A stretch of DNA of 64,000 nucleotides from an uncultured Bacilli bacterium (GTDB taxonomy: Bacteria; Bacillota_I; Bacilli_A; RF39; UBA660). The position numbers and the translations under genes were made by a program. Below, in pieces: positions 12,204-30,597 of this stretch (position 1 is its first letter; each line of letters starts with the position of its first letter). The notes under the pieces are model-generated. The model was given only the letters and a program-made list of their open reading frames with translations. It was not told where the DNA came from and ran no database searches. The stretch is from positions 51,830 to 115,829 of the forward strand of contig CAJTZY010000001.1 of NCBI GenBank assembly GCA_910584085.1. The letters run 5' to 3'.

Positions 12204-12222
12204 TGATATATCACTATTTAAT

Positions 12223-12296
12223 GCAGGTGTGGTTCAATGGTAGAATGCGGCCTTGCCAAGGCTGAGACGCGAGTCCGATTCTCGTCACTTGCTCCA
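12223..12296 (+). tRNA. tRNA-Gly (GCC)
   Basis: Hand-folded. Acceptor stem is GCAGGTG/CACTTGC and the anticodon stem-loop is CGGCC-TTGCCAA-GGCTG. The T arm is GCGAG-TCCGATT-CTCGT. The CCA end is encoded. Confidence 0.9.
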
Positions 12297-12375
12297 TATG
12301 TAAATTTAGACTGGGTATAAATGCCTAGTTTTTTGTATTATTTGAACTCGCGTCTTAGCTAATTTATTAAATTAC
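12297..12375 (+). repeat. tRNA-Gly 3' flank module (copy Y0)
   Basis: Homologous by eye to 30508-30590 and 27349-27407. Shared blocks include tata.atgccta, a T-run, and g.actc.cgtct.agc.a.tttatta. Confidence 0.7.
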
Positions 12376-12705
12376 AACAAATAAATTAAAAATCAATTAG
12401 TTTTAGATATAGTTGATAGAGATAAAACAATTGTTTTTATTGATTTAGCTGATAGAACTATTGCCGAATATCAGGGTATTCAGAAATTATCTGTTACCCT
12501 AAAAGAATTAGAAAGTGAATTTCTTAATAATCGTGATAGAATTAGATTACTATATAAAAAATAATTAAGAATTGACTTTGCTATTATGATTTGTAGATTT
12601 TTTAAATGAACAAATTTTTGGATGAAAAACGCAATTAATCAAATTACAAAAATGTAGAAAAATTTGAAAAAGACAATGCAATTTAATACAAGCATTGTCT
12701 TTCAA

Positions 12706-13383
12706 TTATGTATGTACCATTTCCGTATTTTCTTTGATTTCATTATCAATGATCCATTTAATATCCTCAATGGATTTATCAATGTTAAAACGCCCATTTC
12801 CAACAGGATAATAAACTGAATAAAATTTATATTTAGTGCCATTAATATCTTTTATAAAACACTTTTTTCTTACTTGTGAAACAGATATTTTTTCATCTAA
12901 TACAATAGAACTAACTTGATTACCAAATAGAACTATAACTTTAGGATTAACAATATTAAATTCTTGTTTTAAAAGATACAAGTACTCTTTGTAAACAAAA
13001 TCTGGTAATTCTCTAGCATCAACTTGAGTACACTTGCCGAGATTAGTTATAAAATATTTATGTTTTTTTACATCATCATAAACTTTATCAGCAAATGCTT
13101 CTGTCCACTCGCTACCTTTCATTGATTTTATATTAGAATATATTTCCTTGTCTAATAAATCTAATTCAATGAATAAATCCCAAATGTTTTTTGTACCAAT
13201 CCAAGGGGATTTTAATCCTCCCCAGTCCTTTGATGAGGCAATATTCCTTCCTGTTGGATTCATAAATACAAAACATATATCAGGATTATTATCACAACCA
13301 CCATTATAAATTGAATCTAATTCTTTAGCACCATATTTTTTTTGAAGTTTATCATATTCCTTTGTCAAATCTTTTAAATTCAT
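12706..13383 (-). CDS. Uracil-DNA glycosylase superfamily protein
   Basis: Motif-1-like FVFMNPTGRN (compare GMNPG/GINPG of the SMUG/MUG classes), ITNLGKC, and a C-terminal YYPVGNG at the motif-2 position. The exact family is uncertain. Confidence 0.55.
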   Translation of the reverse strand: MNLKDLTKEYDKLQKKYGAKELDSIYNGGCDNNPDICFVFMNPTGRNIASSKDWGGLKSPWIGTKNIWDLFIELDLLDKEIYSNIKSMKGSEWTEAFADKVYDDVKKHKYFITNLGKCTQVDARELPDFVYKEYLYLLKQEFNIVNPKVIVLFGNQVSSIVLDEKISVSQVRKKCFIKDINGTKYKFYSVYYPVGNGRFNIDKSIEDIKWIIDNEIKENTEMVHT

Positions 13384-13392
13384 TAAACCATC

Positions 13393-14028
13393 CTATTTTA
13401 CTAATTTTTTAGTTTGGTCTTGTTCTATTGTTGAAATAGTATTTAATATAAATTCAAAAATATCTTTTTGTTCAACATCCATAGTACTTTTTTCTTCCTC
13501 TTCAGTTAATTCCGATTTAAATTTATTTAATGATGAAATAATTTGAATTGAAGCAAGAGGATATCCTTCATCAATAATTTTACTTTGTTTATTTGTAAAA
13601 CAACGATTAGCTTTATATTCAAATGTATATGTATTATTTTGATTAACGATTGCGACGCCTTTTAAAAAATATCCTTTTAGTGTTCCATTTTCTCCGTATT
13701 TATTTACTAAATCAATATAATATTTAATCATTTCTATATCATTTAATCTTTTACCATTAATTCTTCTAACGTGAGTACCTGGTTGGATATTATCAGGAAC
13801 ACTTTCTAAAAATAATCCCTCATCTAATGCTATTGTTGGCATTCCACTCATTTTATGGTATGCACTTGCCTTAATAATCGCATTTTCTATTGGATTTTTA
13901 CCTGTTTCATTAACATCGTATTCAATATTTAAATCTTCCAGTGTTACTATTTCAATACCATGTTCTCTCAATTTGGTTCCATAATATCTAATTTTTGCTT
14001 TATTTGTTGTTGCTAATAAATACTTCAT
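13393..14028 (-). CDS. Ham1/RdgB-like non-canonical NTP pyrophosphatase family protein
   Basis: LLATTNKAKI (ATxNxxK), NETGKNPIENAIIKA (ETG...NA..KA), and ALDEGLF at the DDSGL position. GGAGG precedes the ATG at 14028, so the MINGGNK extension in the ORF track is unlikely. Confidence 0.6.
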   Translation of the reverse strand: MKYLLATTNKAKIRYYGTKLREHGIEIVTLEDLNIEYDVNETGKNPIENAIIKASAYHKMSGMPTIALDEGLFLESVPDNIQPGTHVRRINGKRLNDIEMIKYYIDLVNKYGENGTLKGYFLKGVAIVNQNNTYTFEYKANRCFTNKQSKIIDEGYPLASIQIISSLNKFKSELTEEEEKSTMDVEQKDIFEFILNTISTIEQDQTKKLVK

Positions 14029-14101
14029 TTTATTTCCTCCGTTTATCAAGTTTTGAATATAATAAAATTATACAATAAATAATAGAAATTTACCATACTC
14101 C

Positions 14102-14162
14102 CTGTGATTTTTCATTGAAAATTCAAAAAAATTATAGAGACATTTTCACTGAAAAATCACAG
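14102..14162. promoter_or_regulatory. 21-bp inverted repeat in a divergent promoter region
   Basis: ctgtgatttttcattgaaaat (14102-14122) pairs with attttcactgaaaaatcacag (14142-14162). There is one mismatch and a 19-nt spacer. It lies between the Ham1-like gene (-) and the DUF3800-like gene (+). Confidence 0.5.
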
Positions 14163-14239
14163 AAAAAGATGATATTGAGCATTAGATATTAACTAATTAA
14201 ATCAATTTTGTTATAATATATAAAAGGAAGTGATTCTAC

Positions 14240-14941
14240 ATGATTCAAATGAATGTTTATTTTGATGAAAGCTGTCATTTGTTAAAAGACAACTCAGATG
14301 TTTTAGGAATTGGATGTTTATATTGTCAATCAGAATTTAGAAAAGAAATTATGTACAATATACGAGCTATAAAAAGAAAATATGGGTTTAAAAGAGATCA
14401 TGAAATAAAATGGACTAGAGTTTCCATGAATAAAATAGGATTATATAAAGAACTAATAGACTATTTCTTTCAGGAACCAAAATTACATTTTAGAGGAATA
14501 ATAACTCTAAATAAAAATCAATTGGTTGTTTCTGGTGAAGATGAATATAGACAATGGTATGATAAAATGAATTATTATTTGTTTAATAAAATAATCAATC
14601 GTGGCTATTCATATAGGATTTTCTTAGATAAAAGAGATACAAAAGGAAAAGAAAATTTAGGAAAACTAAGAGAAGTAATCTGCAATAGTAAATATGACTT
14701 TAGTATGGATACAATAACTAGCATCGAAGATATCAATTCAAATAACAATGATTTAATTCAACTTACTGATTTAATAATTGGAGCATTAACTTATTACCAC
14801 AGGGGTTTAACAAGTAGTCCCGCGAAAATGGAAATAATAAAACATTTATCTTTAAAAACAAATGTTTCTGAAACATCAAACTGGAATGAAACAAAGTTCA
14901 ACCTATTAATATGGAGTCCAAATATAAATTATGGAAAATAA
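14240..14941 (+). CDS. DUF3800-like protein
   Basis: N-terminal VYFDESCH (the family's xYxDESG-type start) and C-terminal LIQLTDLIIGAL resemble DUF3800 as I remember it. AAGGAAG RBS. Confidence 0.55.
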   Translation: MIQMNVYFDESCHLLKDNSDVLGIGCLYCQSEFRKEIMYNIRAIKRKYGFKRDHEIKWTRVSMNKIGLYKELIDYFFQEPKLHFRGIITLNKNQLVVSGEDEYRQWYDKMNYYLFNKIINRGYSYRIFLDKRDTKGKENLGKLREVICNSKYDFSMDTITSIEDINSNNNDLIQLTDLIIGALTYYHRGLTSSPAKMEIIKHLSLKTNVSETSNWNETKFNLLIWSPNINYGK

Positions 14942-15569
14942 TAATTTTGACTATAATACTTTTGTAGATGAAACATATGAAAAATTTAAAGAATATTTTA
15001 CCAACAATAAAACTTTAAAATATAATAATGTAGAGTATCCAATTATAATAAATACTAATGATTTAGAATTTGATGATAAACCGAGAATATTTTGGCATAT
15101 TTGTTCTCTAGGTGAAGAAAACGGCATATACTTTGATTCTTATAAAAAGCGATTAAAATTCAGCGTTTTTCCTTGTATAAATCATATTTCTTCAGTTAAT
15201 TGTAAATTACAATGTAATTTAGAAGATGAAAACATTCAATTAAAGGACAACAGAGTTCCTTGCATATATAGAATGAGTAAAATTGATAATCTTAAAATAG
15301 CTATGGATTTATTTAATGAACAAAGCAATCAAATAAAATGGTGGACTAAAAAAGAAACTTCTAATAAAAGTAAGAAAAACAAAAAAATGCTTAAAATAAG
15401 ATATACAAAAGCTTTAGAAGATTATGTTATAATGTTTGAATTTAGATATACTGATGCTAGTAAAAATCAAATTAGTAAATTTCAGTTTGTTACTGCTTAT
15501 CAAATTTTTGATAATAATACAAAAAAAAGATTTGACAATGAATATATAGAATTCTCAAGTAAAACTTGA
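14931..15569 (+). CDS. Hypothetical protein (212 aa), overlapping partner of the DUF3800-like gene
   Basis: The start overlaps the upstream stop by 11 nt (ATGGAAAATAA). Has a Cys cluster (FPCINHISSVNCKLQC). No recognised family. Confidence 0.65.
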   Translation: MENNNFDYNTFVDETYEKFKEYFTNNKTLKYNNVEYPIIINTNDLEFDDKPRIFWHICSLGEENGIYFDSYKKRLKFSVFPCINHISSVNCKLQCNLEDENIQLKDNRVPCIYRMSKIDNLKIAMDLFNEQSNQIKWWTKKETSNKSKKNKKMLKIRYTKALEDYVIMFEFRYTDASKNQISKFQFVTAYQIFDNNTKKRFDNEYIEFSSKT

Positions 15570-15576
15570 GTTTTTT
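15554..15576 (+). terminator. Intrinsic terminator
   Basis: Hairpin ctcaag-taaaa-cttgag followed by TTTTTT, overlapping the stop codon of 14931-15569. Confidence 0.7.
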
Positions 15577-15822
15577 ACAACAAAAAAACCATCCCGCTAC
15601 CAGCAGGACGGACTTTCAAGCTGCGACTTTGGCAGTTGAACAACTAAATTGTAGCATATTTTATTGAATATGTCAAACCATGGAATACGCTACATTAAAT
15701 ATTATGCACATTACTTAAAAATAATATTAAATTGGTTAATATTTTTTATCATCTTTTATTATTGGTTAAATATTTATTTTTTTAATATTGAAATAATTTT
15801 CGACTAACAGTATAAAAAAATG

Positions 15823-15875
15823 TTGACATTTTTAAATTTTAATCATATAATGTAATAAGAAACTGACTAACAGTT
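15823..15875 (+). promoter_or_regulatory. Consensus sigma-A promoter plus likely TetR operator
   Basis: TTGACA (15823-15828), 17-nt spacer, TATAAT (15846-15851). The decamer gactaacagt occurs at 15802-15811 and 15865-15874. The second copy sits in ACTGactaaCAGT just downstream of the -10. Confidence 0.6.
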
Positions 15876-15894
15876 CAAATAAAGAAGGTGGATT

Positions 15895-16497
15895 ATGAAA
15901 AAGGAAATAAGAAAAAAAGAACTCATTAAAATAGCATATAACTTATTTATTACAAAGGGATATGAAAATACATCAGTGGATGAAATTATTGCTAAAGCAG
16001 GAATTGCTAAAGGAACTTATTATTATCACTTTGAAAGTAAGGAACAAATGCTAGAAGAAGTTATAAATATGATGATTGATGAAGGGGTAGAAAGAGCAAA
16101 GCAAGTAGTAAATTCTAATTTAAAATTAGAAGAAAAATTAGTATATACTATTCTTGCACTTCGTGTGACACCTGAAGAACAATCTATGCAAGATGCAATT
16201 CACACAAAAGAAAATATTATATTGCATAAAAAAATTAATGATAAAATTATTGATGTAGCTGTTCCTTTACTTTCTTCTATTGTAAGAGATGCACAAAAAG
16301 AAGGGCTATTTACAAGGAACGATAATATTGAAGAAAGAGTTAGAATGACTTTAATATTAAGTAATGAAATGTTTAATCATAGTGAAATAAATGAAGCAAA
16401 GATTTCCGTATTTATTGATACACTTGAGAATATTTATGGGGCAAAGACTGGGTCGCTTTCATTTATACAAAAATTAATTAAAGGAGAATTAGAATGA
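15895..16497 (+). CDS. TetR/AcrR family transcriptional regulator
   Basis: N-terminal HTH: LIKIAYNLFITKGYENTSVDEIIAKAGIAKGTYYYHFESKE. Confidence 0.85.
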   Translation: MKKEIRKKELIKIAYNLFITKGYENTSVDEIIAKAGIAKGTYYYHFESKEQMLEEVINMMIDEGVERAKQVVNSNLKLEEKLVYTILALRVTPEEQSMQDAIHTKENIILHKKINDKIIDVAVPLLSSIVRDAQKEGLFTRNDNIEERVRMTLILSNEMFNHSEINEAKISVFIDTLENIYGAKTGSLSFIQKLIKGELE

Positions 16498-17255
16498 AAA
16501 AAAATATTATGATAAGTGCTAAAAATTTAGTTAAAAGTTTTAATAGTGGAGATACTAAACAAACCATAATTAATAATTTAGATATAGATATATATGATGA
16601 AGATTTTACAATTATAATGGGTTCAAGTGGTGCCGGTAAATCTACTTTAATGTATCTTTTGTCTGGTATGGATAAGGCAAATTCTGGTAGTATAATATTC
16701 AAAGATAAAGATATTTGTAAAATGAATAATGATGAACTAGCAATATTTAGAAGAAGAAATTGTGGCTTTGTTTTTCAACAAATATACTTACTTGATAAAA
16801 TGAGTTTGATGGATAATGTACTAACATCTGGACTACTTGTAAATAACAATAAAAAAGAAATAGTAGGGAAAGCAAAAGAATTATTTGAAAGAGTCAATAT
16901 TCCGGAAATTACTTATAAAAAGAATATGAATCAGGTATCAGGTGGGGAATGCCAAAGAGCCGGAATTGTAAGAGCAGCAATAAATAATCCTAGCATAATA
17001 TTTGCGGATGAACCAACTGGAGCACTCAATAGTGAAAATTCGAATGCTGTACTTGATGTTTTAACTAATCTTAATAATAATGGTCAAAGTATTATTATGG
17101 TTACCCATGATAAAAAAAGTGCTTTAAGAGGAAATAGAATTATATATTTAAAGGATGGAAAAATATTTGGAGAACTTAAACTTGGTAAGTATGAAACAAA
17201 TGATAATACACGAAATGAAAAATTAGATAAGTTTTTAAAAGAAATGGGGTGGTAA
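16494..17255 (+). CDS. ABC transporter ATP-binding protein (MacB/LolD-like)
   Basis: Walker A GSSGAGKST, signature VSGGECQR, Walker B IIFADEPTGALN. Overlaps the TetR gene by 4 nt (ATGA). Confidence 0.9.
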   Translation: MKKNIMISAKNLVKSFNSGDTKQTIINNLDIDIYDEDFTIIMGSSGAGKSTLMYLLSGMDKANSGSIIFKDKDICKMNNDELAIFRRRNCGFVFQQIYLLDKMSLMDNVLTSGLLVNNNKKEIVGKAKELFERVNIPEITYKKNMNQVSGGECQRAGIVRAAINNPSIIFADEPTGALNSENSNAVLDVLTNLNNNGQSIIMVTHDKKSALRGNRIIYLKDGKIFGELKLGKYETNDNTRNEKLDKFLKEMGW

Positions 17256-17258
17256 CTT

Positions 17259-19568
17259 ATGAAAAAAGCAATTACCCTATCTAAATATTTCTTTAAAAAA
17301 AACATAAAAGATATTATTTCACTTGTAATAATAATACTACTTTCAACAATATTATTCTCTAGTGCTATTATTATAAATTTTAATGTTAGTAAAGACTATG
17401 ATAAAGAAGCAGATAAATTAAATACAGCAAATAGTTTTTTTACAATACCTAGTGTAGAATATACAGATAATATACTTAATGATATAAAAAATATTAAAGG
17501 AATTGAAAGTGTAGAAGTACAAGATGGAATAATGCTTACTATTCCAGTAAATATGGAAGGATCTATCCAGGAACAAAATCAAATATTTTATAATATAGAT
17601 AATGTTTCTAATATAAATAAAAAAGAAATAATAAAAGAAACTACCGATAACGTTAGGTATGGTATATATCTTTCAAATTATACATATATTCATTCAGGAT
17701 TAAACATAAAAGGTGAATATAAATTTAATATAGATAACATTGCCTATTCATTTAATATTAAAGGTGTAGTAAATGAAATGCAATATGGTAATTATACTTC
17801 ATCAGTAATAGGAGAATATTTGAGTAGTGATGCTTATAATTATTTACTCGAAAACAATAAAGAAAAATCTGTTACCATTATTTCTGTAAAATCAAAGAAT
17901 AGTTATTCATCTTATAATAATATATCTAAATATTTGAGTGGTAAAAATATCAATGTTTTAAGCAAAAATTATAAAGAGCAATCTAAAAACCAAAGACTTG
18001 CAATTTCAAATATATTAGTTTTAATACTTATGGTATTTGCAAGTTCAATACTTATTATAAGTTTATTTGTAAGTAAATTTAAAATAGAACAAACGGTAGA
18101 GGAAGAAACTTCTAATATGGGTGCCTTAAAAGCACTAGGATATACAAGTAAAGAAATAATTATGTCTTGTATACTTCCATATATAATAAGTGGATTATTA
18201 TTTACAATACTAGGAATAGTTGCTTCATATTTTGTCTTGCCAATTTTAAGTAAAGTGATAGAAATGCAATCAGGTTTCATTTGGAAAGTAAAAATAGATT
18301 TATCACTAAATATACTAGTATTACTTATCAATATGATTTTAATAACTACATTTACACTTGTTGCTTCCTTGAAAATAAAAAAACTAAATCCTATCAATGC
18401 AATTAGGGGAATAGCTCCTAAAGAAAATAATAAAAATCATTTTGAAATAGAAAAAGCAAAAGGAAATATTCACTTTATCTTGATGTTAAAAAACTTTATG
18501 AATACTAAAAAGCAAAATATATTACTTGGAATTATGTTATTTTTAATAACTATAATATCATCGTTTATAGGTATATTATTTTATAATGTAAATATGAATC
18601 CTATTAACTTTATAAATACTTTGGTAGAAGAGCATCCATCAGTAGTTATTTCATCTAATCTTGATTTAAGAAAGAAATTTGAAACACAAGAAAATGTTAA
18701 AAGTGTTATATATTATGATGAAAATGTTACTTTAAATTATAAAGATAACTCTTATAAAACTTTCGTAGCAGAAAATTTTAAAGATTTATCTAATGACTTA
18801 TGTTATAAAGGAAAAAATCCAATAAATAGTAATGAAGTAGCAATAGGGAGTAAACTAGAAGAAACTTATAATATAAATATTGGAGATTATATTACATTAA
18901 GTAAAAATGGAAAAGAAAATAAGTATAAAGTTGTAGGCTTTATTCAATCTGTCAATTATTCTGGAGAGGTAGTAGAAATGACTTTAGATGGATATAAAAT
19001 ACTAGATAATTCATATTTACCTACTACAATGTATATTTATTTAGATAATGAACAAAGATCAGAAGAATTTATAAATCAAGTTAAAAATGAATATGGTAGT
19101 GATATTATTTCTACAATGAACTACGCTGAATCAATGGAATCAGCTACAACAATGTATGTTTCTCTTGTAAGTATCATTTGTATTATAATTATTATAATTA
19201 CCTTATTACTTATTTACCTAATTTTATATATTGTAATTTCATCAATTATTATGAAAAGAAAACAAGAACTTGGAATATTTAAAGCAATAGGTTATGAAAA
19301 TAAAGAGTTAGTTAAACAATTAGTAGGTGGATTTTTACCTAGTACAATTATAGGATCAATGTTAGGTCTTATAGTTAGTAAGTTTTTTATGAGCGATGTT
19401 TATAACAAAATATTTATGTCAGTAGGGGCATATAAAGTAAGTTTTGAATATCCACTTATAATATTTATAAGTTTAGTGATTTTTCTAATACTTGCAACAA
19501 TTATTATTGCAACAATATTAGCGCATAAAATAAAAAGGATTTCAGTATATTCACTTATCAAAGATTAA
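17259..19568 (+). CDS. FtsX-family ABC transporter permease (769 aa)
   Basis: Two FtsX-type TM bundles separated by large extracytoplasmic regions. Immediately follows the ATPase gene. Confidence 0.8.
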   Translation: MKKAITLSKYFFKKNIKDIISLVIIILLSTILFSSAIIINFNVSKDYDKEADKLNTANSFFTIPSVEYTDNILNDIKNIKGIESVEVQDGIMLTIPVNMEGSIQEQNQIFYNIDNVSNINKKEIIKETTDNVRYGIYLSNYTYIHSGLNIKGEYKFNIDNIAYSFNIKGVVNEMQYGNYTSSVIGEYLSSDAYNYLLENNKEKSVTIISVKSKNSYSSYNNISKYLSGKNINVLSKNYKEQSKNQRLAISNILVLILMVFASSILIISLFVSKFKIEQTVEEETSNMGALKALGYTSKEIIMSCILPYIISGLLFTILGIVASYFVLPILSKVIEMQSGFIWKVKIDLSLNILVLLINMILITTFTLVASLKIKKLNPINAIRGIAPKENNKNHFEIEKAKGNIHFILMLKNFMNTKKQNILLGIMLFLITIISSFIGILFYNVNMNPINFINTLVEEHPSVVISSNLDLRKKFETQENVKSVIYYDENVTLNYKDNSYKTFVAENFKDLSNDLCYKGKNPINSNEVAIGSKLEETYNINIGDYITLSKNGKENKYKVVGFIQSVNYSGEVVEMTLDGYKILDNSYLPTTMYIYLDNEQRSEEFINQVKNEYGSDIISTMNYAESMESATTMYVSLVSIICIIIIIITLLLIYLILYIVISSIIMKRKQELGIFKAIGYENKELVKQLVGGFLPSTIIGSMLGLIVSKFFMSDVYNKIFMSVGAYKVSFEYPLIIFISLVIFLILATIIIATILAHKIKRISVYSLIKD

Positions 19569-19581
19569 GGGGAAAAGAAGA

Positions 19582-19839
19582 ATGAATAAAGAAAAATTTA
19601 TTAAGGAATTAGAGAATGTCACAGGCTTAGATAATAATAAGTGTACTATTATCAATAGCATATTAGAAGACCACTTTTTACTCGGAAAAGGTAACAAAGA
19701 AAAAATTATTAATGATATAATACTTAAGTTACAAATGGATAATGAACAAGCAGAAAAAATATATGAATCAGCAATGTCTATAATTGGAACTGGTATTAAA
19801 GATAAATTAAAACATCCATTTAAAAGTCAAGATAGTTAA
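19582..19839 (+). CDS. Hypothetical small protein (85 aa), HU-like N-terminus
   Basis: MNKEKFIKELENVTGLDNNKC resembles the N-terminal helices of HU-family proteins. Weak call. Confidence 0.4.
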   Translation: MNKEKFIKELENVTGLDNNKCTIINSILEDHFLLGKGNKEKIINDIILKLQMDNEQAEKIYESAMSIIGTGIKDKLKHPFKSQDS

Positions 19840-19910
19840 GTATCAAAGATAAAAAATAAACAAAATCTATTCATATATTCTAAAACGTGATAAACATCAA
19901 AAGAGAACAT

Positions 19911-19960
19911 GTATTCTTCATTATTGGAAAAGTTCGTAGATACATATGGCACTTGTTCCG
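19911..19960 (+). repeat. tRNA-Gly-end-like junction repeat (copy X2)
   Basis: gtattcttcattattggaaaagttcgtagatacatatggcacttgttccg aligns by eye with 30453-30505 (gtattctttcgttattggaaaagaattgtaaatatctacgccacttgctcca). Confidence 0.6.
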
Positions 19961-20190
19961 CTGGAAAATTTGTCTGAACTTTTGGACACTGATTATATAG
20001 AAAATCAATTGAAAAATTGATTTTTTTAAAGCATTCCAAAGAAATGATGGCGTTTATGATTAGGTTAATTATAAAGGATACCATTTGAAAGTTCTTTAAG
20101 GAAAAGATTAAAGTTTATCCGTCAACCTTGTAAAACCAAACACTTTGAGCATAGAAAAAGATGATTGTAATACCATCTTTTTAACCATGA

Positions 20191-22357: not shown

Positions 22358-22415
22358 CTATAATTAATTATATCACAAAATTTACATTTTCCTAAACTTA
22401 TGTTAAAACATCAAA

Positions 22416-22620: not shown

Positions 22621-23688
22621 TTATTTAGTATAAATTTTCTTTTTTACTTTTTCTTCTTCACTCTCACTTAATAGATAGCTATAGTCATAGTTACTTATTC
22701 TTTTTGCACCTCCTAGTTCTGGTAAATCAATTAAACACAACACTTTTGTAACATTTCCTCCTAGGCGTTCTATTAATTTGATGATTGCCTCCATTGTTCC
22801 ACCAGTTGCCATTAAATCATCAATTATTGCCACATTTTGACCAGGTTTTATAGCATCTTTATGAATTTCCAAAGTATCTGTTCCATATTCTAATTCATAT
22901 TCTTGCTGAATAGTTTCTGCTGGTAATTTATTTGGTTTTCTAACAGGAACATATCCTTTATTTAATTTATATGCAACAGGTGCAGCAAACATAATTCCTC
23001 TCGCTTCTGGACCAACAATAATATCTACATTTTGATCAATTTTACTTGCTAGAAAGTCAATTGCAAGATGATAAGCAAATGGATCCTTTAAAATAGTTGT
23101 AACATCTTTAAAGTTAATTCCAGGTTTTGGATAATCACTAATTCTTCTTAGAGTTAATGATAATTTAAGTTTTACGAGATATTCTTTCATTTTTTTATAT
23201 TCTTCATCATGTGGTAGTAATTGATTGCTATCCATTAGACGAAGCATTTCTTCTATACTTACCCAACAGGTATAAGAAACTTCTTCTTTTTGAAGAATTA
23301 TCTCTTCTTTATTTATATTTTGCCTTGCTATAAATACATCGACCAATTCATTACTATCAATATCAGCATATTTTAACCTCTCCTGAATAGTTGTAAAGTA
23401 TTCTACACTTTCTGAATCTAAATCAACTCCTAACTCTTCTTTGGTTTCTCGAAATAAAGCATCTATAGAATTTTCTTTCGTACTTACATGCCCTCCAACA
23501 GAAACATCCCATGTGTTAGGATATAATTTTTTATTTCCACATCGATATTGAAGTAGAATTTCTCCATCATCATTAATAATCCACAAATGGACTGATCTAT
23601 GTAGTCTCCCTTCTTTATGGGCTACATCCTTATCAATAACCCCAATTATTTCTCCTTTATCATTTAATTCATCAATTATTTCTTTCAT
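22621..23688 (-). CDS. Nudix hydrolase / adenine phosphoribosyltransferase fusion protein
   Basis: The N-terminal half has a full Nudix box: GGHVSTKENSIDALFRETKEELGV (Gx5Ex7REUxEExGU). The C-terminal half is collinear with Apt: DYPKPGINFKDVTTIL, IVGPEARG, and the PRPP loop VAIIDDLMATGGT. Confidence 0.85.
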   Translation of the reverse strand: MKEIIDELNDKGEIIGVIDKDVAHKEGRLHRSVHLWIINDDGEILLQYRCGNKKLYPNTWDVSVGGHVSTKENSIDALFRETKEELGVDLDSESVEYFTTIQERLKYADIDSNELVDVFIARQNINKEEIILQKEEVSYTCWVSIEEMLRLMDSNQLLPHDEEYKKMKEYLVKLKLSLTLRRISDYPKPGINFKDVTTILKDPFAYHLAIDFLASKIDQNVDIIVGPEARGIMFAAPVAYKLNKGYVPVRKPNKLPAETIQQEYELEYGTDTLEIHKDAIKPGQNVAIIDDLMATGGTMEAIIKLIERLGGNVTKVLCLIDLPELGGAKRISNYDYSYLLSESEEEKVKKKIYTK

Positions 23689-23703
23689 ATTATTTTATCC
23701 TTC

Positions 23704-24804
23704 CTATTTCTTAATTAATTTTTTTACTTCATTTTTTTCATAATCATCAACTTGTCTTAATGATTGTTCATTGGAAATGGCATTAATCACGTTTGCAAAG
23801 TATTTTGATAAATCAACTTCGTGATACCAATTTTCTTTCTTTATATCCTCTAGAACGTAGGTAACATTCGTTGTATATAAAGTATTAAAAATACCAAGTT
23901 TGTTAGCCTCTTTAAATCTTTTTATACTTTCTTCTCCATCTGTAAATAATGGGAATGTTACCATAATATCAATTTTTTTTGCACCTTTCTTTTTTAATTT
24001 TGATGCAACATCTAAGACAGATTCTCCACTAGCAATCATATCATCAACAATAATTATATGTTTACCAGCTACATCCTCTCCTAAGTACTTGTGTTCAACT
24101 AAAGGATTCTTTCCATTTATCACTTTGGAATAATCTCTTCTTTTATGAAACATTCCAACATTGACTCCTAAGATACTTGCAAATGGAATTGCTCGAGAAA
24201 TAGCTCCCTGGTCTGGTGCGATAACAATAGTTTTATCTCTTTGAAATTCTTCACTCAACAAAAATTCTTTTAAGAGAATGTAAGTAGGTAATAGATTATT
24301 AAAAGTTGTTTTTCTTAAGACATTATTGCACACAACAGGATTATGCGCATCTAAAGTAATGATTCCATCTACATTTTTAGTTTCTAAGTCAATCAATCCT
24401 TCCTTGCAATCAAGAGACTCATCCACACCATTTGGCTTCTTATCTTGTCGTGATTCATATAGTAGTGGAGTTACAACATGAATGGACTTTGCTCTGCCAT
24501 CTATTGCAGAAATAATTCTTTTAATATCTTGAAAGTGATCATCTGGACTTTTCATATAGATTCTTCCTCGAGAATAATAGCAAGACTCTTCTCCGTAGTT
24601 TCCTACATCTGATAAAATAAAGATTCTCTTTTCCATAACATCACCATGCAATGTTGCTTTTCCCTCAGCATTTGAAAATCGGTCTAAGTGTATATCAATA
24701 CTTTTATCATACGGATTACCTCGAATGACTTTTAAATGTTCATTTACAAGTTTTCCAAACTTTTGTATATTTGGCATAATAATAAGTTTTGGCTCTTTAC
24801 TCAT
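23704..24804 (-). CDS. Ribose-phosphate pyrophosphokinase-like protein (second, cassette-borne paralog)
   Basis: Carries LLYESRQDKK, DAHN, APDQGA, HKRRD, and IIIVDDMIASGES. GGGAGGAG precedes the ATG at 24804 (MSKEPK...). Lies 15 nt upstream of the Nudix-Apt gene on the same strand. Confidence 0.8.
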   Translation of the reverse strand: MSKEPKLIIMPNIQKFGKLVNEHLKVIRGNPYDKSIDIHLDRFSNAEGKATLHGDVMEKRIFILSDVGNYGEESCYYSRGRIYMKSPDDHFQDIKRIISAIDGRAKSIHVVTPLLYESRQDKKPNGVDESLDCKEGLIDLETKNVDGIITLDAHNPVVCNNVLRKTTFNNLLPTYILLKEFLLSEEFQRDKTIVIAPDQGAISRAIPFASILGVNVGMFHKRRDYSKVINGKNPLVEHKYLGEDVAGKHIIIVDDMIASGESVLDVASKLKKKGAKKIDIMVTFPLFTDGEESIKRFKEANKLGIFNTLYTTNVTYVLEDIKKENWYHEVDLSKYFANVINAISNEQSLRQVDDYEKNEVKKLIKK

Positions 24805-24935
24805 ATCTTTCTCCTCCCTCAACAACACCATTATATATTAATTTTTTTAAATTTTTTCAAAAAGTATATTAACTAATAGTAGAATTTTCTTGTAATTTTT
24901 GTATGTTTTTGATATAGTAATTTTGAGGTGTTAGT

Positions 24936-26204
24936 ATGAATCATTATGAACTTGGAAATCATATATATAATCTTAGAGTTGCAAGAGGACTTACGCAAAG
25001 AGATATTGCTGAAAAACTATCTATTTCCGATAAAGCTATTTCAAAATGGGAGAACGGAACTTCTCAACCAACGGTTTACAATCTTCAGAAATTAGCAGAT
25101 ATATTTGATATAACTTTGGAAGAATTATTGAAAGTTTCAAAAGAAAATCAAGAGAAGCAAATTACAAAAATTGTAATTACAGGAGGAATATTATCTGGGA
25201 AAAGCACCTGCTGTCATGAAGTAAAGGATCATTTTGAAAAAATCGGTTATAAAGTTGTTATTGTTCCTTCTATGGAATCTATATTAGAAGAGAATGGATT
25301 TATAGATTTTAATAATTATGAAGAACTACTAAAAAGTCGACTAGAGTTTGAGAAAACATTTAATAATTTAATACAAGCTATGGATGCAAATAAAATATTG
25401 GTGCTATATGATGGTGCTAGTCTAGATATTAGAAGCATGTGTACAAAAAGAGAATTCACAACCATTTGCAATACACTATCTATATCTTCAGAAGAGGTTA
25501 GAAATTCATATGATGCAGTATTTCACTTAAAAAGTATCGCAAAATGGGATAACACACTTTTTGATAAATTAAATGATAATAATAAAATAGATTCTTCTCT
25601 AGCAATTACCATAGATGATAAAATTATTGATACTTGGATTGCTCATGCTAATTATAGAATGATTGACTGTTGTATTTCTATAGAAAATAAAGCAAAGAAA
25701 CTGATTCATGAGATTGCAAAATTTTTAAATGAAGATGAAAGGTTTTATATTGAAAAAAAATATTTAATTCATATTCCAGATATATCTTATTTGGATAAAC
25801 TAGGTGGTTGTAGCAAAGTAAAAATGACCTTAACGTATTTAAATAAATCTTCCGAACAGTGTGATATAAAGCTTCTTCTACGAGATGAAGATGGTAAAAA
25901 ATTCTATCAAAAAATCATTAAAGGCAATAATAAAAAAAGTACAATTTCATTAAGTGCAGAGGAATATATCGATGAACTGGATAATAAGATGCTTGATAGA
26001 AACCCAATTGTTAAGTACCGATACAGTTTTATATATCATTCAGTTTACTATAAAATCGATATCTTCGAAGACAAAGCTTTTTCTATTTTAGAAGTGGATT
26101 TATTAAGTAGTCATGAAACCATACAGTTCCCATCGTTTATTGAAGTATTAAAAGATGTAAGTGAGGATCCAAATTATAAAAATTATAATCTTAGTAAAAA
26201 GTAA
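24936..26204 (+). CDS. Three-domain protein: XRE-type HTH, P-loop NTPase/kinase-like domain, CYTH (triphosphate tunnel) domain
   Basis: HTH: LRVARGLTQRDIAEKLSISDKAISKWENG. Walker A: ITGGILSGKST. The C-terminal ~150 aa has the CYTH pattern (YIEKKYLI start, alternating charged strands, ILEVDL, then FPSFIEVLKDVSEDPNYKNYNL). Confidence 0.7.
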   Translation: MNHYELGNHIYNLRVARGLTQRDIAEKLSISDKAISKWENGTSQPTVYNLQKLADIFDITLEELLKVSKENQEKQITKIVITGGILSGKSTCCHEVKDHFEKIGYKVVIVPSMESILEENGFIDFNNYEELLKSRLEFEKTFNNLIQAMDANKILVLYDGASLDIRSMCTKREFTTICNTLSISSEEVRNSYDAVFHLKSIAKWDNTLFDKLNDNNKIDSSLAITIDDKIIDTWIAHANYRMIDCCISIENKAKKLIHEIAKFLNEDERFYIEKKYLIHIPDISYLDKLGGCSKVKMTLTYLNKSSEQCDIKLLLRDEDGKKFYQKIIKGNNKKSTISLSAEEYIDELDNKMLDRNPIVKYRYSFIYHSVYYKIDIFEDKAFSILEVDLLSSHETIQFPSFIEVLKDVSEDPNYKNYNLSKK

Positions 26205-26371
26205 ATAGAATTACAGTTTATATTTTATCAAAAAATGAAAATAAGCAAGTAACATTGCTTATTTTTGGTCTCAGACATGTTATATTATACATGAAGATTA
26301 TATATTCACTAGTTTTGACAATCAATTTAGAACATGTTCTATTAACTTAGTAAATAGATGATATATATATT

Positions 26372-26455
26372 GTCTTCGTATAGAGAAAAGTTGTGTCATC
26401 ACTCTAATATCGCTACATTCAAAAAATCGATTTTTTTGATGCTTTTATTTAACAA
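26372..26455 (+). repeat. Diverged junction repeat (copy X4 plus flank)
   Basis: gtcttcgtatagagaaaagttgt...taatatcgctacattc parallels the X unit with a ~10-nt insertion. The following gatgcttttattta matches 27385-27398. Confidence 0.45.
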
Positions 26456-26602
26456 TTGTATTTTTAACATTTAGAATAATATTTTCTGCATTCATACAAA
26501 TAATCTTATGTACTATATAATATAAATTTTTATATTAAATCTATTTTAGTTACTCTTTTATATCTATGAAAATATTAAATTAGTTCAAGTAAAAAAATGC
26601 TT

Positions 26603-27277
26603 TTAAGCACTTCTTACTTTTTTTAATTTTTTAATACTAGTATATTGCTCATATATATTATCTAGTTCCATTGGATTTTTTACAAATATTTCCCCTGCAT
26701 ATGGTTTAACAAAGTCACCTTTAATTTTTAATTTATCCACTGATATTTGTCCGTTAAATAATCTTATTAATAATATATTTGTTAAACTAGATAAATTTAT
26801 ATATTCGTCAAAACCAACTTTCAATAAAATTGCATTTTTATATAATGTTCTTAGTGTTGTTTGTTCTTCGAATGATGCAAACCAATCGTAATTTAATTTA
26901 TATTTATAAACACAAATATCACCTATAAATAAATCATTTATATCTAAATAATCTAGATTAATGACCTGATTCTTTTTGCCTTTATAGTAAGTATATTGTT
27001 TAGTGAATCCGGAAAAAATATCAAATTGTTCTGAACAAGAATCAGAATAGCTACTACTATCATTGTTATTATTAGAATTAATATTATCGTGATTTTGTTT
27101 TTTATCTTTCATTATGTGTTTATATGCTTCAATTATTTTTTTCATTTTTTCTTCATTATTAATGCCAGGATTTAAATCTGGATGATATTTAAATACCAAT
27201 TTTCTATATGCTTTCTTTATTTCCTCTACTGAGGCATTACTTGATACTCCTAAAATATCATAATAATTTTCTGTCAT
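26603..27277 (-). CDS. J-domain (DnaJ N-terminal domain) protein with an unknown C-terminal domain
   Basis: [33 protein letters not shown] includes the HPD tripeptide. This is followed by an N/S-rich linker and ~140 aa of unrecognised sequence. No Gly/Phe region or zinc-finger region of full DnaJ. Confidence 0.8.
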
Positions 27278-27348
27278 AGCAGTTCCCCTTTCTTAATGGC
27301 GTCTATAATAATACTTTTTTTATCATTTGTCAAATTCTAAAACTTAAT

Positions 27349-27407
27349 TATACATGCCTAACTAAGCACAAACTCAGTTTTTATATGCTTTTATTTACGT
27401 CTCATCA
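27349..27407 (+). repeat. tRNA-Gly 3' flank module (copy Y1)
   Basis: tatacatgcctaactaagcacaaactcagtttttatatgcttttatttacgtctcatca aligns with 30510-30570 and with 12316-12360. Confidence 0.6.
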
Positions 27408-27441
27408 TACTTTTTATTTTCAGAATTTAATTTATTTTTTT

Positions 27442-28329
27442 TCAATTTTTATTTTTTAATATATAATTAATAAATTCATTACAACTATTGCTCAATATAT
27501 TATTTTTTAATGTAATAATACCATATGATATTCTAGGAGTTTTAGGAATTGTTTCAATAATAAATAGTTCTTTATTTTTTAATTCCTTTTCCACATATAA
27601 TTTAGTTACATATCCTATACCATAACCAATTTTTGTAAAATCAATAAGTAATGATGAACTTCCAATATTTAATTTAGAGTCGACTTCCAAATTATTTTCT
27701 TTAAATAATTTTTTCACACTAAAATAGGAATTAGAAGGCTCTTTCTGAAGTAATATTGGATGTTTTACTAAATCAATTAATTTCATAGGTTGTTTTAAAT
27801 TGTTATATAGTTCTTTATTAGCCACAAATTCATAAGAAGTATCTCCAATTTTGATAAAATTTAAATCACTTTCTAAATTATCTGGCAATTTACAAATTAT
27901 TAAATCAAGTAATCCATTTTGTAATAATTTAATATTATCTTTAGTTGTATCAGTATTAATTTCTATTTTTATATTAGGATATTTTTTATAGAAAGTATTT
28001 ATATAATCCATTAATAATCTTACTAAAGTAGTACTTATGCCAATTCTTATTGTTCCACAATAATTATCTTTATAATTTTTTATTTCATTTTCGACATTAT
28101 CTAATATCGTTAATGCATTTTTAATCTCTAAAAATATTTTTTGACCTATTGGTGTTAGAACAACACCTTTTCTTGTTCTACTAAATAATATAACACCTAA
28201 TGAATCTTCTAAATTTTTTATATGCTTTGTTATAGCAGGCTGCGATATATTTAATTCTTCACTAGCTTTTGTTATATTTTGATTAATTGCTACAATATAA
28301 AATATCCTATATAATTCAATGTTTACCAT
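27442..28329 (-). CDS. LysR-family transcriptional regulator
   Basis: N-terminal wHTH: ELYRIFYIVAINQNITKASEELNISQPAITKHIKNLEDSLG. Typical length of 295 aa. Confidence 0.9.
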   Translation of the reverse strand: MVNIELYRIFYIVAINQNITKASEELNISQPAITKHIKNLEDSLGVILFSRTRKGVVLTPIGQKIFLEIKNALTILDNVENEIKNYKDNYCGTIRIGISTTLVRLLMDYINTFYKKYPNIKIEINTDTTKDNIKLLQNGLLDLIICKLPDNLESDLNFIKIGDTSYEFVANKELYNNLKQPMKLIDLVKHPILLQKEPSNSYFSVKKLFKENNLEVDSKLNIGSSSLLIDFTKIGYGIGYVTKLYVEKELKNKELFIIETIPKTPRISYGIITLKNNILSNSCNEFINYILKNKN

Positions 28330-28352
28330 AACATCACCAATTAAATTATATC

Positions 28353-28367
28353 ATAACTTAAAGTTAT
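28353..28367. promoter_or_regulatory. Candidate LysR box (T-N11-A type dyad)
   Basis: ATAAC-ttaaa-GTTAT, a perfect dyad in the divergent intergenic region. Confidence 0.45.
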
Positions 28368-28441
28368 TGCCTATATATAATATTTGTATTTTACATTATA
28401 TAAAAAAATAGTGTATAATGCAATTAGAAAGAGGTGAAAAT

Positions 28442-29464
28442 ATGACAAGACAAGAAATTAGAGAAATTGTAATGAGCGGTAATACGGGAGAATATTCACA
28501 TGTGATAATATGCTGTGATACTTTCGATTATGAGGATTATCCAGTGTATGTTAAATATGAAGAAGATATTAAAAAAGTGGTAGCAGATTATAATGATCAT
28601 AATAAAATGAGTAGCGTTATGGAGGTATATAACTATAATTTAGAATTAGAAAAGCAATTAAATGAAAGAAGAGCTTATCATATAGAACCATTAAATAAAT
28701 ATAAAAAAACTGTTAAAAACAATGAAGAAAAAATGCCAGAGAAAGTGGAAACAGCGAGTTCCCAATATGATAATAATATAAGTGAAAACTTGAAAAAGGC
28801 AATTGATTATGCAGTAAGAATGCATAAAGGACAAACAAGACTAAATGGTGAACCATATATAAAACACCCTCTACACGTTGTTCAAAATGTCTTAAAATAT
28901 AAAAAATCAAAGAATATTGAGGCATTATTAATAAGTGCATGTCTACATGACACAATAGAAGATACTGAAGCTACTTACTATGATATATCTCAAAATTTTG
29001 GATCACAAGTAGCTAGCTTAGTTTTAGAATTAACTACTGATGAAGATATGAAAAATGCACTTGGGAAGCAACAATATTTATCAATAAAAATGAAGAATAT
29101 GAGCAGTTGGGCTCTTGTAATTAAATTATGTGATAGACTCGATAATGTGAATGACCTATTAGATTGTAAAGATGAAAAATTTAAAAACAAATATGTAACT
29201 GAAACAATAGAAATTATGGATTATCTCTTAAAAAACGCAAAATTATCAAATACTCATATAACAATCATAGAACAAATATTATGCTTATTAATTCAATTAA
29301 GTAAAGATGATAATGAAAAGACAACAAAATTAACTGAAATCATTGATAGATACTCAAAATTAAAAATAAGTTTGCATAATCAAGATGAAATATTTTCAAG
29401 ATTAATGAAAATTACTAATTATATGGATGATAATGGTAATATGTGTAAAAAATTAATTTTATAA
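28442..29464 (+). CDS. RelA/SpoT-type HD hydrolase domain protein (small alarmone hydrolase-like) with extra N- and C-terminal regions
   Basis: AIDYAVRMHKGQTRLNGEPYIKHPLHV and ACLHDTIEDT match the (p)ppGpp-hydrolase HD domain. The first ~120 aa are unrecognised. The ATG at 28442 follows AGAGGTGA. Confidence 0.75.
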   Translation: MTRQEIREIVMSGNTGEYSHVIICCDTFDYEDYPVYVKYEEDIKKVVADYNDHNKMSSVMEVYNYNLELEKQLNERRAYHIEPLNKYKKTVKNNEEKMPEKVETASSQYDNNISENLKKAIDYAVRMHKGQTRLNGEPYIKHPLHVVQNVLKYKKSKNIEALLISACLHDTIEDTEATYYDISQNFGSQVASLVLELTTDEDMKNALGKQQYLSIKMKNMSSWALVIKLCDRLDNVNDLLDCKDEKFKNKYVTETIEIMDYLLKNAKLSNTHITIIEQILCLLIQLSKDDNEKTTKLTEIIDRYSKLKISLHNQDEIFSRLMKITNYMDDNGNMCKKLIL

Positions 29465-29662
29465 TTACATTTTTCGAATAATTATACTAGAATAGAATAA
29501 AAAATTATATATAATGTTTATGAAAAAAACTTATTAGTCCGTAAGATGTTGCTTAATTGCTCCATGTAAAAGATAAAAATGATTATGATAGATAATTTCA
29601 CAAAATATATGATTTTATTCTAAAATACGATACTATATTAAAAACAAGGGAGGTTTATAAAA

Positions 29663-30388
29663 ATGACAAGTGAAATTGCAAAAAAATATGAATACTATAA
29701 AAAATATGGAAATATTATTATGGACTATGATGAAATATTAATATTTTATCCAGATTATTTCAAAACGAAAAATGAATTAGAACAATTAAAATTTATTTCT
29801 AAAGAAGAGGCAGATGAATATTTTGAAAGTCATTATAAAAGTTCAATATTATATGAAAAATTAACTGCTCTAGCAATGGCTGAAGATGAAATATATAATT
29901 TTATGAAACATAATATGGAATTTAAATATTCACAATTCAGTTTATTATTCAAAGAATCAGTTTCTTCCGTTATTCAACTTTGTGAATTAATTGATTATAT
30001 AGGTCATTATCCAACAACATGGCCTGTACCAAAAGAAGAAGAAAAAAATCCAAAATTGGAAGGGTTACTTGAACAATATGATATTATCGTTAGATATTAT
30101 TTATATGATGAGCTTGATAAAATGCAAATTACTTCAGATGATGTTGTTAGAATAATTGAAACCTTAAAGTGTAGATTAGCATACGTTAATTCAGTATTAA
30201 AAATAACTTACAATAATGAATGGTTATTAACTAGAAAAACATCTGAAGAAGAAAATGTAGAACTTATTAATCAAGCATTTGAAGATATTAAATGGTTTCC
30301 TTTATCTAATTATCAAACTGAAAATAAATCCAAACGTGAAGAGGGAAAAATGTATTTAAGACTTCAACATAGGAATAATATTATTTAG
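29663..30388 (+). CDS. Hypothetical protein (241 aa)
   Basis: ORF with GGGAGG RBS. No motif recognised. Confidence 0.65.
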   Translation: MTSEIAKKYEYYKKYGNIIMDYDEILIFYPDYFKTKNELEQLKFISKEEADEYFESHYKSSILYEKLTALAMAEDEIYNFMKHNMEFKYSQFSLLFKESVSSVIQLCELIDYIGHYPTTWPVPKEEEKNPKLEGLLEQYDIIVRYYLYDELDKMQITSDDVVRIIETLKCRLAYVNSVLKITYNNEWLLTRKTSEEENVELINQAFEDIKWFPLSNYQTENKSKREEGKMYLRLQHRNNII

Positions 30389-30452
30389 TAAAAGATAAGA
30401 AAACTATTTTAATTTGAATATGTTATATATATTTATAAACAGAAGATTATAT

Positions 30453-30590
30453 GTATTCTTTCGTTATTGGAAAAGAATTGTAAATATCTACGCCACTTGC
30501 TCCATATATGTATTTAACTAAGTCGAAATACTTAGTTTTTATATGCATTTTTGGACTCACGTCTCAGCCAGTTTATTACTTTAGAATTTA
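30453..30590 (+). repeat. Best-conserved duplicate of the tRNA-Gly 3' end plus flank (copies X6 + Y2)
   Basis: 30494-30507 (cacttgctccatat) is identical to 12286-12299, which is the tRNA acceptor 3' strand, CCA and 3 nt beyond. It is followed by terminator hairpin aactaagt-cgaaat-acttagtt plus a T-run, then a flank homologous to 12297-12375. Confidence 0.75.
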
Positions 30591-30597
30591 TGCCAAA

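Follow-up and report, generated by a model that had tools for sequence, protein, structure and literature searches.

How does a chromosome come to carry, directly downstream of one intact tRNA gene, some 18 kb of unrelated gene modules that are separated by similar short repeats, with no recombinase gene in sight? The question is raised by a 64,000-nt stretch of DNA (hereafter the window) from an uncultured Bacilli bacterium of the RF39 lineage (positions 51,830 to 115,829 of contig CAJTZY010000001.1, assembly GCA_910584085.1), in which tRNA-Gly(GCC) lies on the forward strand at 12223-12296 (ARAGORN; Rfam tRNA model, 60.4 bits). A first-pass annotation, made from the letters alone, had read the region as cassettes partitioned by decayed copies of the tRNA 3' end and its terminator flank, and had explained them either by repeated site-specific insertion into the tRNA or by a genome-wide intergenic repeat that happens to resemble the tRNA end. 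Our analysis indicates that the locus is probably a tandem accretion of at least three decayed integrative and mobilizable elements (IMEs) at the 3' end of tRNA-Gly(GCC). The first of the two explanations, repeated insertion at this site with later decay, is supported by a comparison with a second strain of the same species, UBA7476, and by the existence of intact relatives of the elements. The window itself holds no recombinase and a single fragment of a Mob relaxase, and for that reason we would read it as a stack of decayed IMEs. Its G+C content is ~25%; a contig of the metagenome-assembled genome GCA_949841305.1 is identical to it, and it is related to uncultured Bacilli of the gut, many of which were deposited under the name 'Tenericutes'.

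Repeat units in the window

The repeats were assessed with a profile of a conserved sequence block, here called the module, built from 24 distinct metagenome copies, none of them from the window, which avoids both circularity and artefacts of AT composition. It gave exactly three significant matches in the window, all on the forward strand and downstream of the tRNA: unit A at 19858-19959 (E 5.5e-8), unit B at 22424-22463 (E 8.8e-6) and unit C at 30429-30505 (E 5.5e-19). Empirical Smith-Waterman scoring of the module consensus against all 6,392 scoring windows of the stretch, on both strands, gave 104 at 30452, 58 at 19911 and 46 at 22416, with 40 for the best unrelated locus and a mean of 17.7. 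The ~50-nt unit that had been proposed at 19911, 22416 and 26372 is thus upheld by the profile at the first two positions; the third (26372-26420) is not separable from chance, because its score of 38 compares with 40 for the best unrelated match. The weaker copies proposed at 15655-15697 and 29531-29572 score 14 and 18, respectively, and belong to the background.

A second profile, made from the flanks of tRNA-Gly genes and of units, all from outside the window, found its two best window matches at 22464-22528 (E 7e-4) and 19971-20027 (E 1e-3), directly 3' of two of the units. It missed 27349-27407, a proposed homologue of the tRNA flank for which blastn gave E 0.003, so that this site is marginal at best. 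None of the sites claimed at 26372, 27349 and 29531 is significant by the module profile, the flank profile or Smith-Waterman scoring. The claims made for the tRNA end itself fared better. The 14-nt sequence CACTTGCTCCA is present exactly twice in the window, at 12286 and at 30494, as had been stated, and the homology that had been seen between the tRNA flank and 30508-30590 is real (12283-12377 against 30491-30586, 75.5% over 98 nt, blastn E 3e-11); we call these two flanks F1 and F3. Three of the seven repeat copies claimed by eye thus prove genuine, and the F1/F3 pair does so as well. Since only three, perhaps four, junctions of the proposed seven-fold partition are supported, the list of modules had been over-split. 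The terminator hairpin said to follow most copies can be recognized by eye after the genuine ones; a simple terminator scan lists the hairpin at 12308-12331 alone.

The units, which had been taken for decay products of the chromosomal tRNA, are in fact right-end modules borne by mobile elements. They have in common with the tRNA only about its last 11 nt, CACYYGCTCCA, and the Rfam tRNA model found no match in them even at E up to 10. Nor does the sequence behind them copy the flank of this tRNA: after two of the units it matches the left end (P') of an element, and we take this P' to be the putative left end of the next, older element in the array.

Other identities for the unit were tried and rejected. 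A tRNA with an internal deletion disagrees with the negative Rfam result and with the conservation of the identical sequence in unrelated contexts. As a small open reading frame (ORF), MYSFVIGKEL*, two copies differ synonymously, but copies of the 19911 type are frameshifted and the coding potential is not conserved. As a structured RNA, the unit shows no covariation within the main module family (RNAalifold, 0 compensatory pairs, -8.9 kcal/mol); intact modules fold better than shuffled sequences (z -2.7 to -4.4, as against -0.7 for unit C), which palindromic DNA sites would do likewise. Finally, an integron, or a cluster of attC sites lacking an integron integrase (CALIN), does not fit multi-gene cassettes on both strands, the lack of attC-like architecture, units that share the 3' end of a tRNA, and a recombinase that is of the serine type and not IntI.

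The reported absence of a recombinase is confirmed by domain scans and tblastn. The ORFs scanned between 2.5 and 52 kb yielded no integrase, transposase or Resolvase domain, and tblastn with three recombinases against the whole window returned nothing below E 0.3. The element family from which the units derive does encode a large serine recombinase.

The right-end module and its element family

A metagenome pattern scan returned 39 loci, all of them true copies of the module. It is a block of ~115 nt, ~95% conserved, whose upstream cargo and downstream flank vary independently of one another, and it is this independent variation that places an element boundary right at GCTCCA. The last ~33 nt of the module consist of the palindrome GTAGATAWCTAC followed by CGNCACYYGCTCCA. 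Across module subfamilies a core of ~33 nt is conserved, AAAGAGTTGTAGATATCTACGACACTCGCTCCA, which in length would suit a half-site of a serine-recombinase attP, and this core appears to imitate a tRNA hairpin, at the position of the T-arm, together with the acceptor end. In at least 18 of the metagenome loci the module is preceded by a Mob_Pre relaxase, which in turn is preceded by a large serine recombinase. One locus (L120) holds a complete 8.3-kb element, made up of tRNA-Gly(CCC), a left-end flank of the type that we call F2, a 94-aa ORF, the recombinase, Mob, ABC-type cargo and the module.

This distribution bears on two explanations in which no mobile element takes part. One is that the unit is a dispersed repeat, either of the repetitive extragenic palindrome (REP) or miniature inverted-repeat transposable element (MITE) type or terminator-bearing, which resembles the tRNA end by accident. 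The copies are indeed intergenic and in the same orientation, with a hairpin and T-run after each. Among 80 loci from 80 related gut Bacilli genomes, however, the module is present only in L009, L032 and L064, the 64-kb window holds no further copy, and wherever the context is readable the module is the right end of a mobile element, beside a tRNA-Gly-type flank. We consider a dispersed repeat very improbable, and the genome-wide version of it offered by the first-pass annotation is rejected on the available sequence. The other explanation, that the units are pseudogenes left by tandem duplication of tRNA-Gly with its flank, among which unrelated genes were inserted later, could appeal to CACYYGCTCCA, to the hairpin at the T-arm position and to the ~75% identity of F1 to F3. 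It is hardly credible, given that the units carry no tRNA signal in the Rfam search and that their non-tRNA sequence is ~95% conserved in dozens of unrelated contexts and hosts, so that the module must travel with elements and does not stem from local duplication.

The family is very abundant. A search with the recombinase protein found at least 7,991 relatives at E <= 1e-50, hundreds of them at 83-92% identity. Its members are laid out as P', a 93-aa ORF, a large serine recombinase of ~640 aa, a Mob_Pre relaxase of ~460 aa, variable cargo and the module. When 16 loci were fetched for two recombinase proteins, with the recombinase protein as the sole criterion, all of them carried the 93-aa ORF, the recombinase, Mob_Pre and cargo as far as their contigs reach; a tRNA-Gly lies upstream in 10 (TCC in nine, GCC in one), 140-640 nt before the 93-aa ORF and recombinase, and a diverged module follows the cargo in 13. 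Proteins of 644 aa and 587 aa match the Pfam families Resolvase, Recombinase and Zn_ribbon_recom, and the Pfam matches in L147-L162 agree. Mob_Pre (E 2.9e-12) adjoins the recombinase in all complete copies. The complete elements (7.8-8.3 kb) contain no VirB4- or TraG-like gene, and an origin of transfer (oriT) was not located in them. The cargo in L147-L162 includes cyclic oligonucleotide-based antiphage signaling systems (CBASS; a DncV-like nucleotidyltransferase with SAVED and NUDIX, and a CD-NTase with Cap15) besides AAA_14/DUF4143, Mbeg1-like and NADAR/HD genes.

At the left boundary of these IMEs a tRNA-Gly ending in GCTCCA runs directly into P', and at the right boundary a module ending in GCTCCA runs directly into the flank, the short core being common with attB. 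An identical P', GTGACGTTTCTGTTCGAAC, begins immediately past the GCTCCA of three different tRNA-Gly genes, and F2 proves to be the P' end of the recombinase-bearing IME in L147, L151, L157 and L120. The crossover presumably takes place in or at GCTCCA. Tandem IME-IME arrays are common, and are found in L147, L156, L158, L161, L111 and L132/L144; in L111, L132/L144 and L134 a recombinase gene comes after a junction of module and flank, and each flank family pairs with one recombinase lineage. An indirect sign of mobilisation is that the DNA to the right of one and the same element differs between L147 and L148, and likewise among L108, L110, L141 and L032.

In relatives of the window, too, the site appears to be occupied, for F2 follows the genuine tRNA-Gly of the related species L002, L006 and L009, the tRNA-Gly of L003 and L014 is followed by a left end belonging to another recombinase lineage, and in L006 a Mob fragment lies 2 kb downstream of the tRNA. 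The tRNA-Gly(GCC) of the window is identical to that of its sister species L002. The gene at 12223-12296 is predicted to be a live integration target (B half-site) with its core GCTCCA at the 3' end. In L009, a mini-cassette of 1.9 kb (12095-13990) that encodes a 362-aa HTH protein and a 134-aa ORF, and neither recombinase nor relaxase, lies between the junction of tRNA-Gly with F2 and a module; it is the smallest unit seen that is like a cis-mobilizable element (CIME).

The P' ends contain in addition an inverted tRNA-Gly segment that spans the anticodon arm or loop to the T-arm, with a score reached by 0 of 300 shuffles. It is found in other P' ends as well (L147 about 9438-9463 and L156 about 935-962, at +73 to +100 in both), and it is element-borne, because in L151 a TCC-type copy also follows a GCC tRNA.

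One copy of the module was found on a viral contig. A first, looser viral pattern scan had given 25 chance matches and one true copy (L082). This copy closes a siphovirus prophage on its right-hand side, behind the genes for head, tail, tape measure, endolysin and an HTH protein, and is 90.6% identical over 159 nt to the unit of UBA7476 and its upstream arm. It is conceivable that the scars in the window were left by tRNA-Gly-specific prophages, possibly with tyrosine integrases, and that the cassettes are morons that outlived prophage decay, particularly as L082 and L122 both carry the module at a siphovirus right end by endolysin and an HTH regulator. Against this stand the single viral contig among 2.9 million, the position of most metagenome copies downstream of a Mob_Pre relaxase, and the window between 12 and 31 kb, which holds no remnant of a phage structural or lysis gene and whose sole backbone relic is Mob-like; moreover, the L082 phage may well use a serine recombinase as its own integrase. 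Such prophage scars are decidedly unlikely, and a prophage-only origin is less likely than descent from IMEs.

Whether the module does more than mark an end can be considered from its conserved parts. All intact modules have, some 65-70 nt before the junction, an extended -10-like motif, TGnTATATT (L108 about 4640-4660). The motif persists from one subfamily to the next along with two hairpins and a tRNA-like ...GCTCCA end that has a terminator behind it, although the sequences of the first hairpin differ completely between subfamilies. In the window, the region of this motif (30429-30450) is degraded. A match to TTTCCA-16-TATAAT is present inside the module on the opposite strand; the promoter scan gave 198 promoter-like matches as against 162 expected, and at 25% G+C such matches are not informative by themselves. 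The circular joint of the clostridial IME Tn4451 is said, after work by Lyras and Rood in 2000, to form the promoter of tnpX, and we know of no counterpart of the ~115-nt right-end module in Tn4451. That the module encodes a small RNA mimicking the tRNA end, or a cross-junction promoter, and that recombinase-less cassettes are shuffled in trans to make an integron-like defence platform at tRNA-Gly in gut Bacilli, is a speculative and rather doubtful proposal. Such an RNA or promoter, with the inverted tRNA-Gly segment of P', might regulate recombination or tRNA-Gly processing. As a separate observation, an intact module of 32% G+C abuts DNA of 57% G+C in L143 (1-200), either in a chimeric contig or through integration in a very different host.

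Order of the array and comparison with a second strain

Accretion of IMEs at the tRNA would proceed as follows. The recombinase, probably the large serine recombinase of the family, would join the module-P' junction of the circular element to the junction of the tRNA with its flank, by a crossover in or at GCTCCA. The tRNA would remain intact, and the module would land at the far side of the element, against the former neighbour of the tRNA. Each new arrival would displace the older elements outward, so that every internal junction would unite the module of a newer element with the left end of an older one. Read in this way, the array would run from tRNA-Gly through E1 (F1, Mob fragment, cargo, unit A), E2 (F2-type flank, two ORFs, unit B) and E3 (F2-type flank, cargo, unit C) to F3 and a truncated HATPase_c_4 gene, with E1 as the latest arrival. 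The recombinase and relaxase genes would have been deleted save for one relaxase fragment, leaving cargo and junction scars. This sequence of events corresponds to the accretion-and-decay model for IMEs and CIMEs (PMC5704250), and accretion by a serine recombinase at a tRNA-like gene has a precedent (PMC3146451).

E1 would begin with F1 (12297-12383, forward strand; homologous to 30509-30593, profile match E 1e-11), which contains the terminator-like hairpin at 12308-12331 and, at about 12346-12359, an inverted copy of tRNA positions 39-52 whose score was reached by 0 of 300 shuffles. We infer that F1 is the left end (P') of this element, because its layout resembles that of the proven P' ends and because a Mob fragment comes next. 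The latter, at 12385-12552 on the forward strand, is a tblastn-detected pseudogene of the C-terminal region of a Mob_Pre (MobV-type) relaxase without a start codon; it is 32% identical over 56 aa to the L120 relaxase (E 6e-5 with composition correction), a weak and single match. The cargo (12706-19839, by Pfam) consists of UDG-like and Ham1-like genes, a DUF3800 pair, TetR, an ABC ATPase, an FtsX permease and an 85-aa ORF. The DUF3800 pair, made up of the DUF3800 protein itself and the next ORF, of 212 aa (14240-15569), corresponds to A and B of PDC-M04, a candidate defence system of PADLOC (E 1.4e-67 and 9e-34). Unit A, on the forward strand at 19858-19959, is the nearly full-length, decayed right-end module of E1 and ends in ...CACTTGTTCC.

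Behind unit A, an F2-type flank with hairpin and T-run (19960-20030, forward strand) is read as the putative left end (P') of E2. The cargo of E2 (20191-22357, reverse strand) comprises, in the ORF list, a 610-aa and a 113-aa ORF that belong to no Pfam family, in a region absent from UBA7476. Unit B (22424-22463, forward strand) represents the conserved 3' core of the module, the palindrome GTAGGTATCTAC followed by CGCCATATGCTCCA, and is 76.6% identical over 47 nt to unit C (blastn). Another F2-type flank with hairpin and T-run, at 22464-22528 on the forward strand, is the best window match of the F2 profile and is similarly read as the candidate left end (P') of E3. The cargo of E3 (22621-30388, by Pfam) holds a Nudix-PRTase, a Prs-like protein, an HTH+AAA_28 protein, a J-domain protein, LysR, an HD hydrolase and a 241-aa ORF, and possibly stems from more than one remnant. 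Within it, the Nudix-PRTase fusion, the Prs-like pyrophosphokinase (with weak PRTase-CE, PRTase_III-A and ShosT matches) and the NadR-like HTH+AAA_28 gene are grouped at 22621-26204, perhaps for the salvage of nucleotides or NAD, or else in connection with defence. Two cargo proteins of the window were looked up by exact database match, and neither is on record.

Unit C, the best-preserved module (30429-30507, forward strand), is 84% identical over 82 nt to the attR of prophage L082 and ends in CACTTGCTCCAT. It is followed by F3 (30508-30593, forward strand; homologous to F1, 97% identical in UBA7476), in which a hairpin with its T-run is accompanied by tRNA positions 38-54 in inverted form (30553-30569). 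F3 would represent the P' end of a remnant older than E3, or else the original chromosomal flank. The truncated C-terminal fragment of the HATPase_c_4 gene (30594-30846, forward strand; PF13749, E 1e-4 on the 112-aa ORF 30508-30846) abuts this last junction. Taken as cassettes, the remnants of the window resemble CIMEs: their junctions are att-type and derive from the family, and the genes for integration and transfer are gone except for the Mob fragment of 56 aa.

Support comes also from the strain comparison, which had given the first clue. 'Bacillales bacterium UBA7476' (locus L032) belongs to the same species, with 97-99% nucleotide identity to the window. Alignment of the two loci, which the first-pass annotation had put forward as a check, shows that their cassette content differs and that the breakpoints lie at unit cores. 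Between its tRNA-Gly and a module-F1 junction, UBA7476 has an extra cassette of 4.6 kb that is absent from the window and carries a nitroreductase, a PdaC-like deacetylase and a 609-aa ORF. Its unit occupies the position of the tRNA in the window, before the same F1 (98.9% identical), and the E1 region is common to both strains down to 15749, where the UBA7476 contig ends (98.9%). In place of 19960-30469 of the window (10.5 kb), UBA7476 has 290 nt; homology stops at the ...GTTCC of unit A, exactly at 19959, and again within or at unit C.

An apparently permuted gene order in UBA7476 was discarded, because it is produced by a scaffold gap in which a perfect palindrome flanks a run of N (L032 7808-7833). 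Separately, a perfect direct duplication of 147 nt (L032 14309-14455 and 16510-16656), either real or an assembly artefact, surrounds the 609-aa ORF, which has no Pfam match, sits in the right-end arm of the extra cassette and is possibly an insertion sequence.

Several observations speak against accretion of decayed IMEs, or at least against its simplest form. The window is without a recombinase, an excisionase or a complete relaxase, and since it lacks the recombinase its link to the IME family rests on ~40-100 nt of junction homology and on the weak Mob fragment; F1 and F3 were never found adjoining a recombinase, and the evidence is wholly comparative. Unit C, supposedly the oldest, is the best preserved, where simple ageing predicts otherwise; that the units belong to different subfamilies may be a reason for this. 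The two strains have the tRNA-proximal E1 in common yet differ in the middle of the array, and insertion at the tRNA alone is therefore insufficient. Finally, the body of the UBA7476 tRNA-Gly(GCC), at tRNA positions 16-62, is of another sequence type (L032 12028-12102, corresponding to window 12238-12284), and the DNA on either side of it is 98-99.9% identical to the window; a crossover at GCTCCA would not account for this swapped body. The odd tRNA body (T4) was not found in viral contigs or in the fetched loci.

The internal difference between the strains would fit a still-active, integron-like platform, in which cassettes are moved in trans by the large serine recombinase of an intact IME or prophage located elsewhere in the genome and the units serve as recombination sites. 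Strains that are ~98% identical do differ in cassette content, with breakpoints at unit cores and one difference inside the array, and tiny recombinase-less cassettes reaching from the tRNA-P' junction to a module are known from L009 (1.9 kb) and from the N cassette of L032. CIMEs are an established concept (PMC5704250). The P and B half-sites, like P' and B', resemble each other, so that internal junctions could still be substrates. Large serine recombinases, however, normally need a directionality factor to act on hybrid sites of the attL/attR type. Units A and B are also decayed (the core of A reads ...GTTCC, and of B only the 3' part is left), unit C no longer folds like the intact modules, and homologous recombination between strains accounts equally well for the internal difference. 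On balance we regard an active platform as unlikely, and prefer the accretion of IMEs that have since decayed.

Parallels, significance and neighbouring genes

Accretion of decayed site-specific mobilizable elements at a tRNA gene is an already known phenomenon. A shallow literature search for serine-recombinase elements at tRNA-Gly or in RF39-type bacteria returned analogues and not this family. Close in layout are the ssrA islands of Dehalococcoides, which stand in tandem downstream of a tRNA-like gene and are each bounded by its 3' end or by a short direct repeat of that end, with a serine recombinase, DsiB (CcrB-like), by attL, and with a conserved element-derived motif just upstream of the repeat that is not alignable to the target gene; some of them lack the integration module and were interpreted as cis-mobilizable remnants (McMurdie et al., 2011; PMC3146451). 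The likeness is one of layout. Those islands are inferred to insert in the T-loop of ssrA (tmRNA), whereas the present elements use tRNA-Gly and have their junction at or after GCTCCA; in Dehalococcoides the integration module is made up of six reverse-strand genes, a Mob_Pre relaxase is not among them, and the host belongs to another phylum.

The gene content of the family is close to that of the clostridial IMEs Tn4451/Tn4453, which combine one large serine recombinase (TnpX), a Mob_Pre/MobV relaxase (TnpZ) and cargo, and Tn4451 likewise has a very short recombination core, of 2 bp; Tn4451, however, has low target specificity (PMC5704250), in contrast to a family specific for tRNA-Gly ends. 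Most IMEs with site-specific serine recombinases insert within genes and disrupt them (PMC5704250), unlike the present elements, which leave the tRNA intact. The succession of integration, att-flanked decay and next integration that yields a tandem array is documented for streptococcal integrative and conjugative elements (ICEs), IMEs and CIMEs, such as those at tRNA-Lys of S. agalactiae and the CIMEs of S. thermophilus (PMC5704250), although these use tyrosine integrases. In Prochlorococcus, tycheposons bring cargo to tRNA genes, newcomers displace older elements, and degraded elements as well as partial tRNAs lie scattered through the islands; large serine recombinases serve a minority of tycheposons (bioRxiv 10.1101/2020.12.28.424599). 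They differ in relying mostly on tyrosine recombinases, in having replication modules instead of a relaxase, in their unrelated hosts, and in scars that are genuine partial tRNAs and not an element-borne mimic.

With this reading, the recombinase-less array of the window would become a readable history, in which at least three elements were stacked at tRNA-Gly and then lost their mobility genes, leaving behind cargo that includes PDC-M04. We judge the element family to be of more interest than the decayed locus itself. The comparison reveals a very abundant family of small elements in gut metagenomes, inserting precisely at the ends of tRNA-Gly genes of three anticodon types in different hosts and bringing with them CBASS and further genes for defence. 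Those who search among such enzymes for genome-engineering tools may also take an interest in a serine recombinase whose conserved target, the end of a tRNA, is left undisrupted.

Accessory-looking genes run on past the last unit, from 30594 to 47700, up to dxs at 47813. They include HD, HAD and GNAT genes, an ABC-2 transporter, AraC/GyrI and LysR regulators, a WG-repeat protein and a truncated LysR, together with a HerA/DUF87- and TraG-like ATPase at 38188-40038 and Fic at 43553-44092. A homologue of the LysR gene at 35970-37199 lies just 4.4 kb from tRNA-Gly in L004. Further downstream, an L21 ribosomal-protein leader (RF00559, 53 bits) is present at 53584-53651, in its ordinary place upstream of the rplU cluster.

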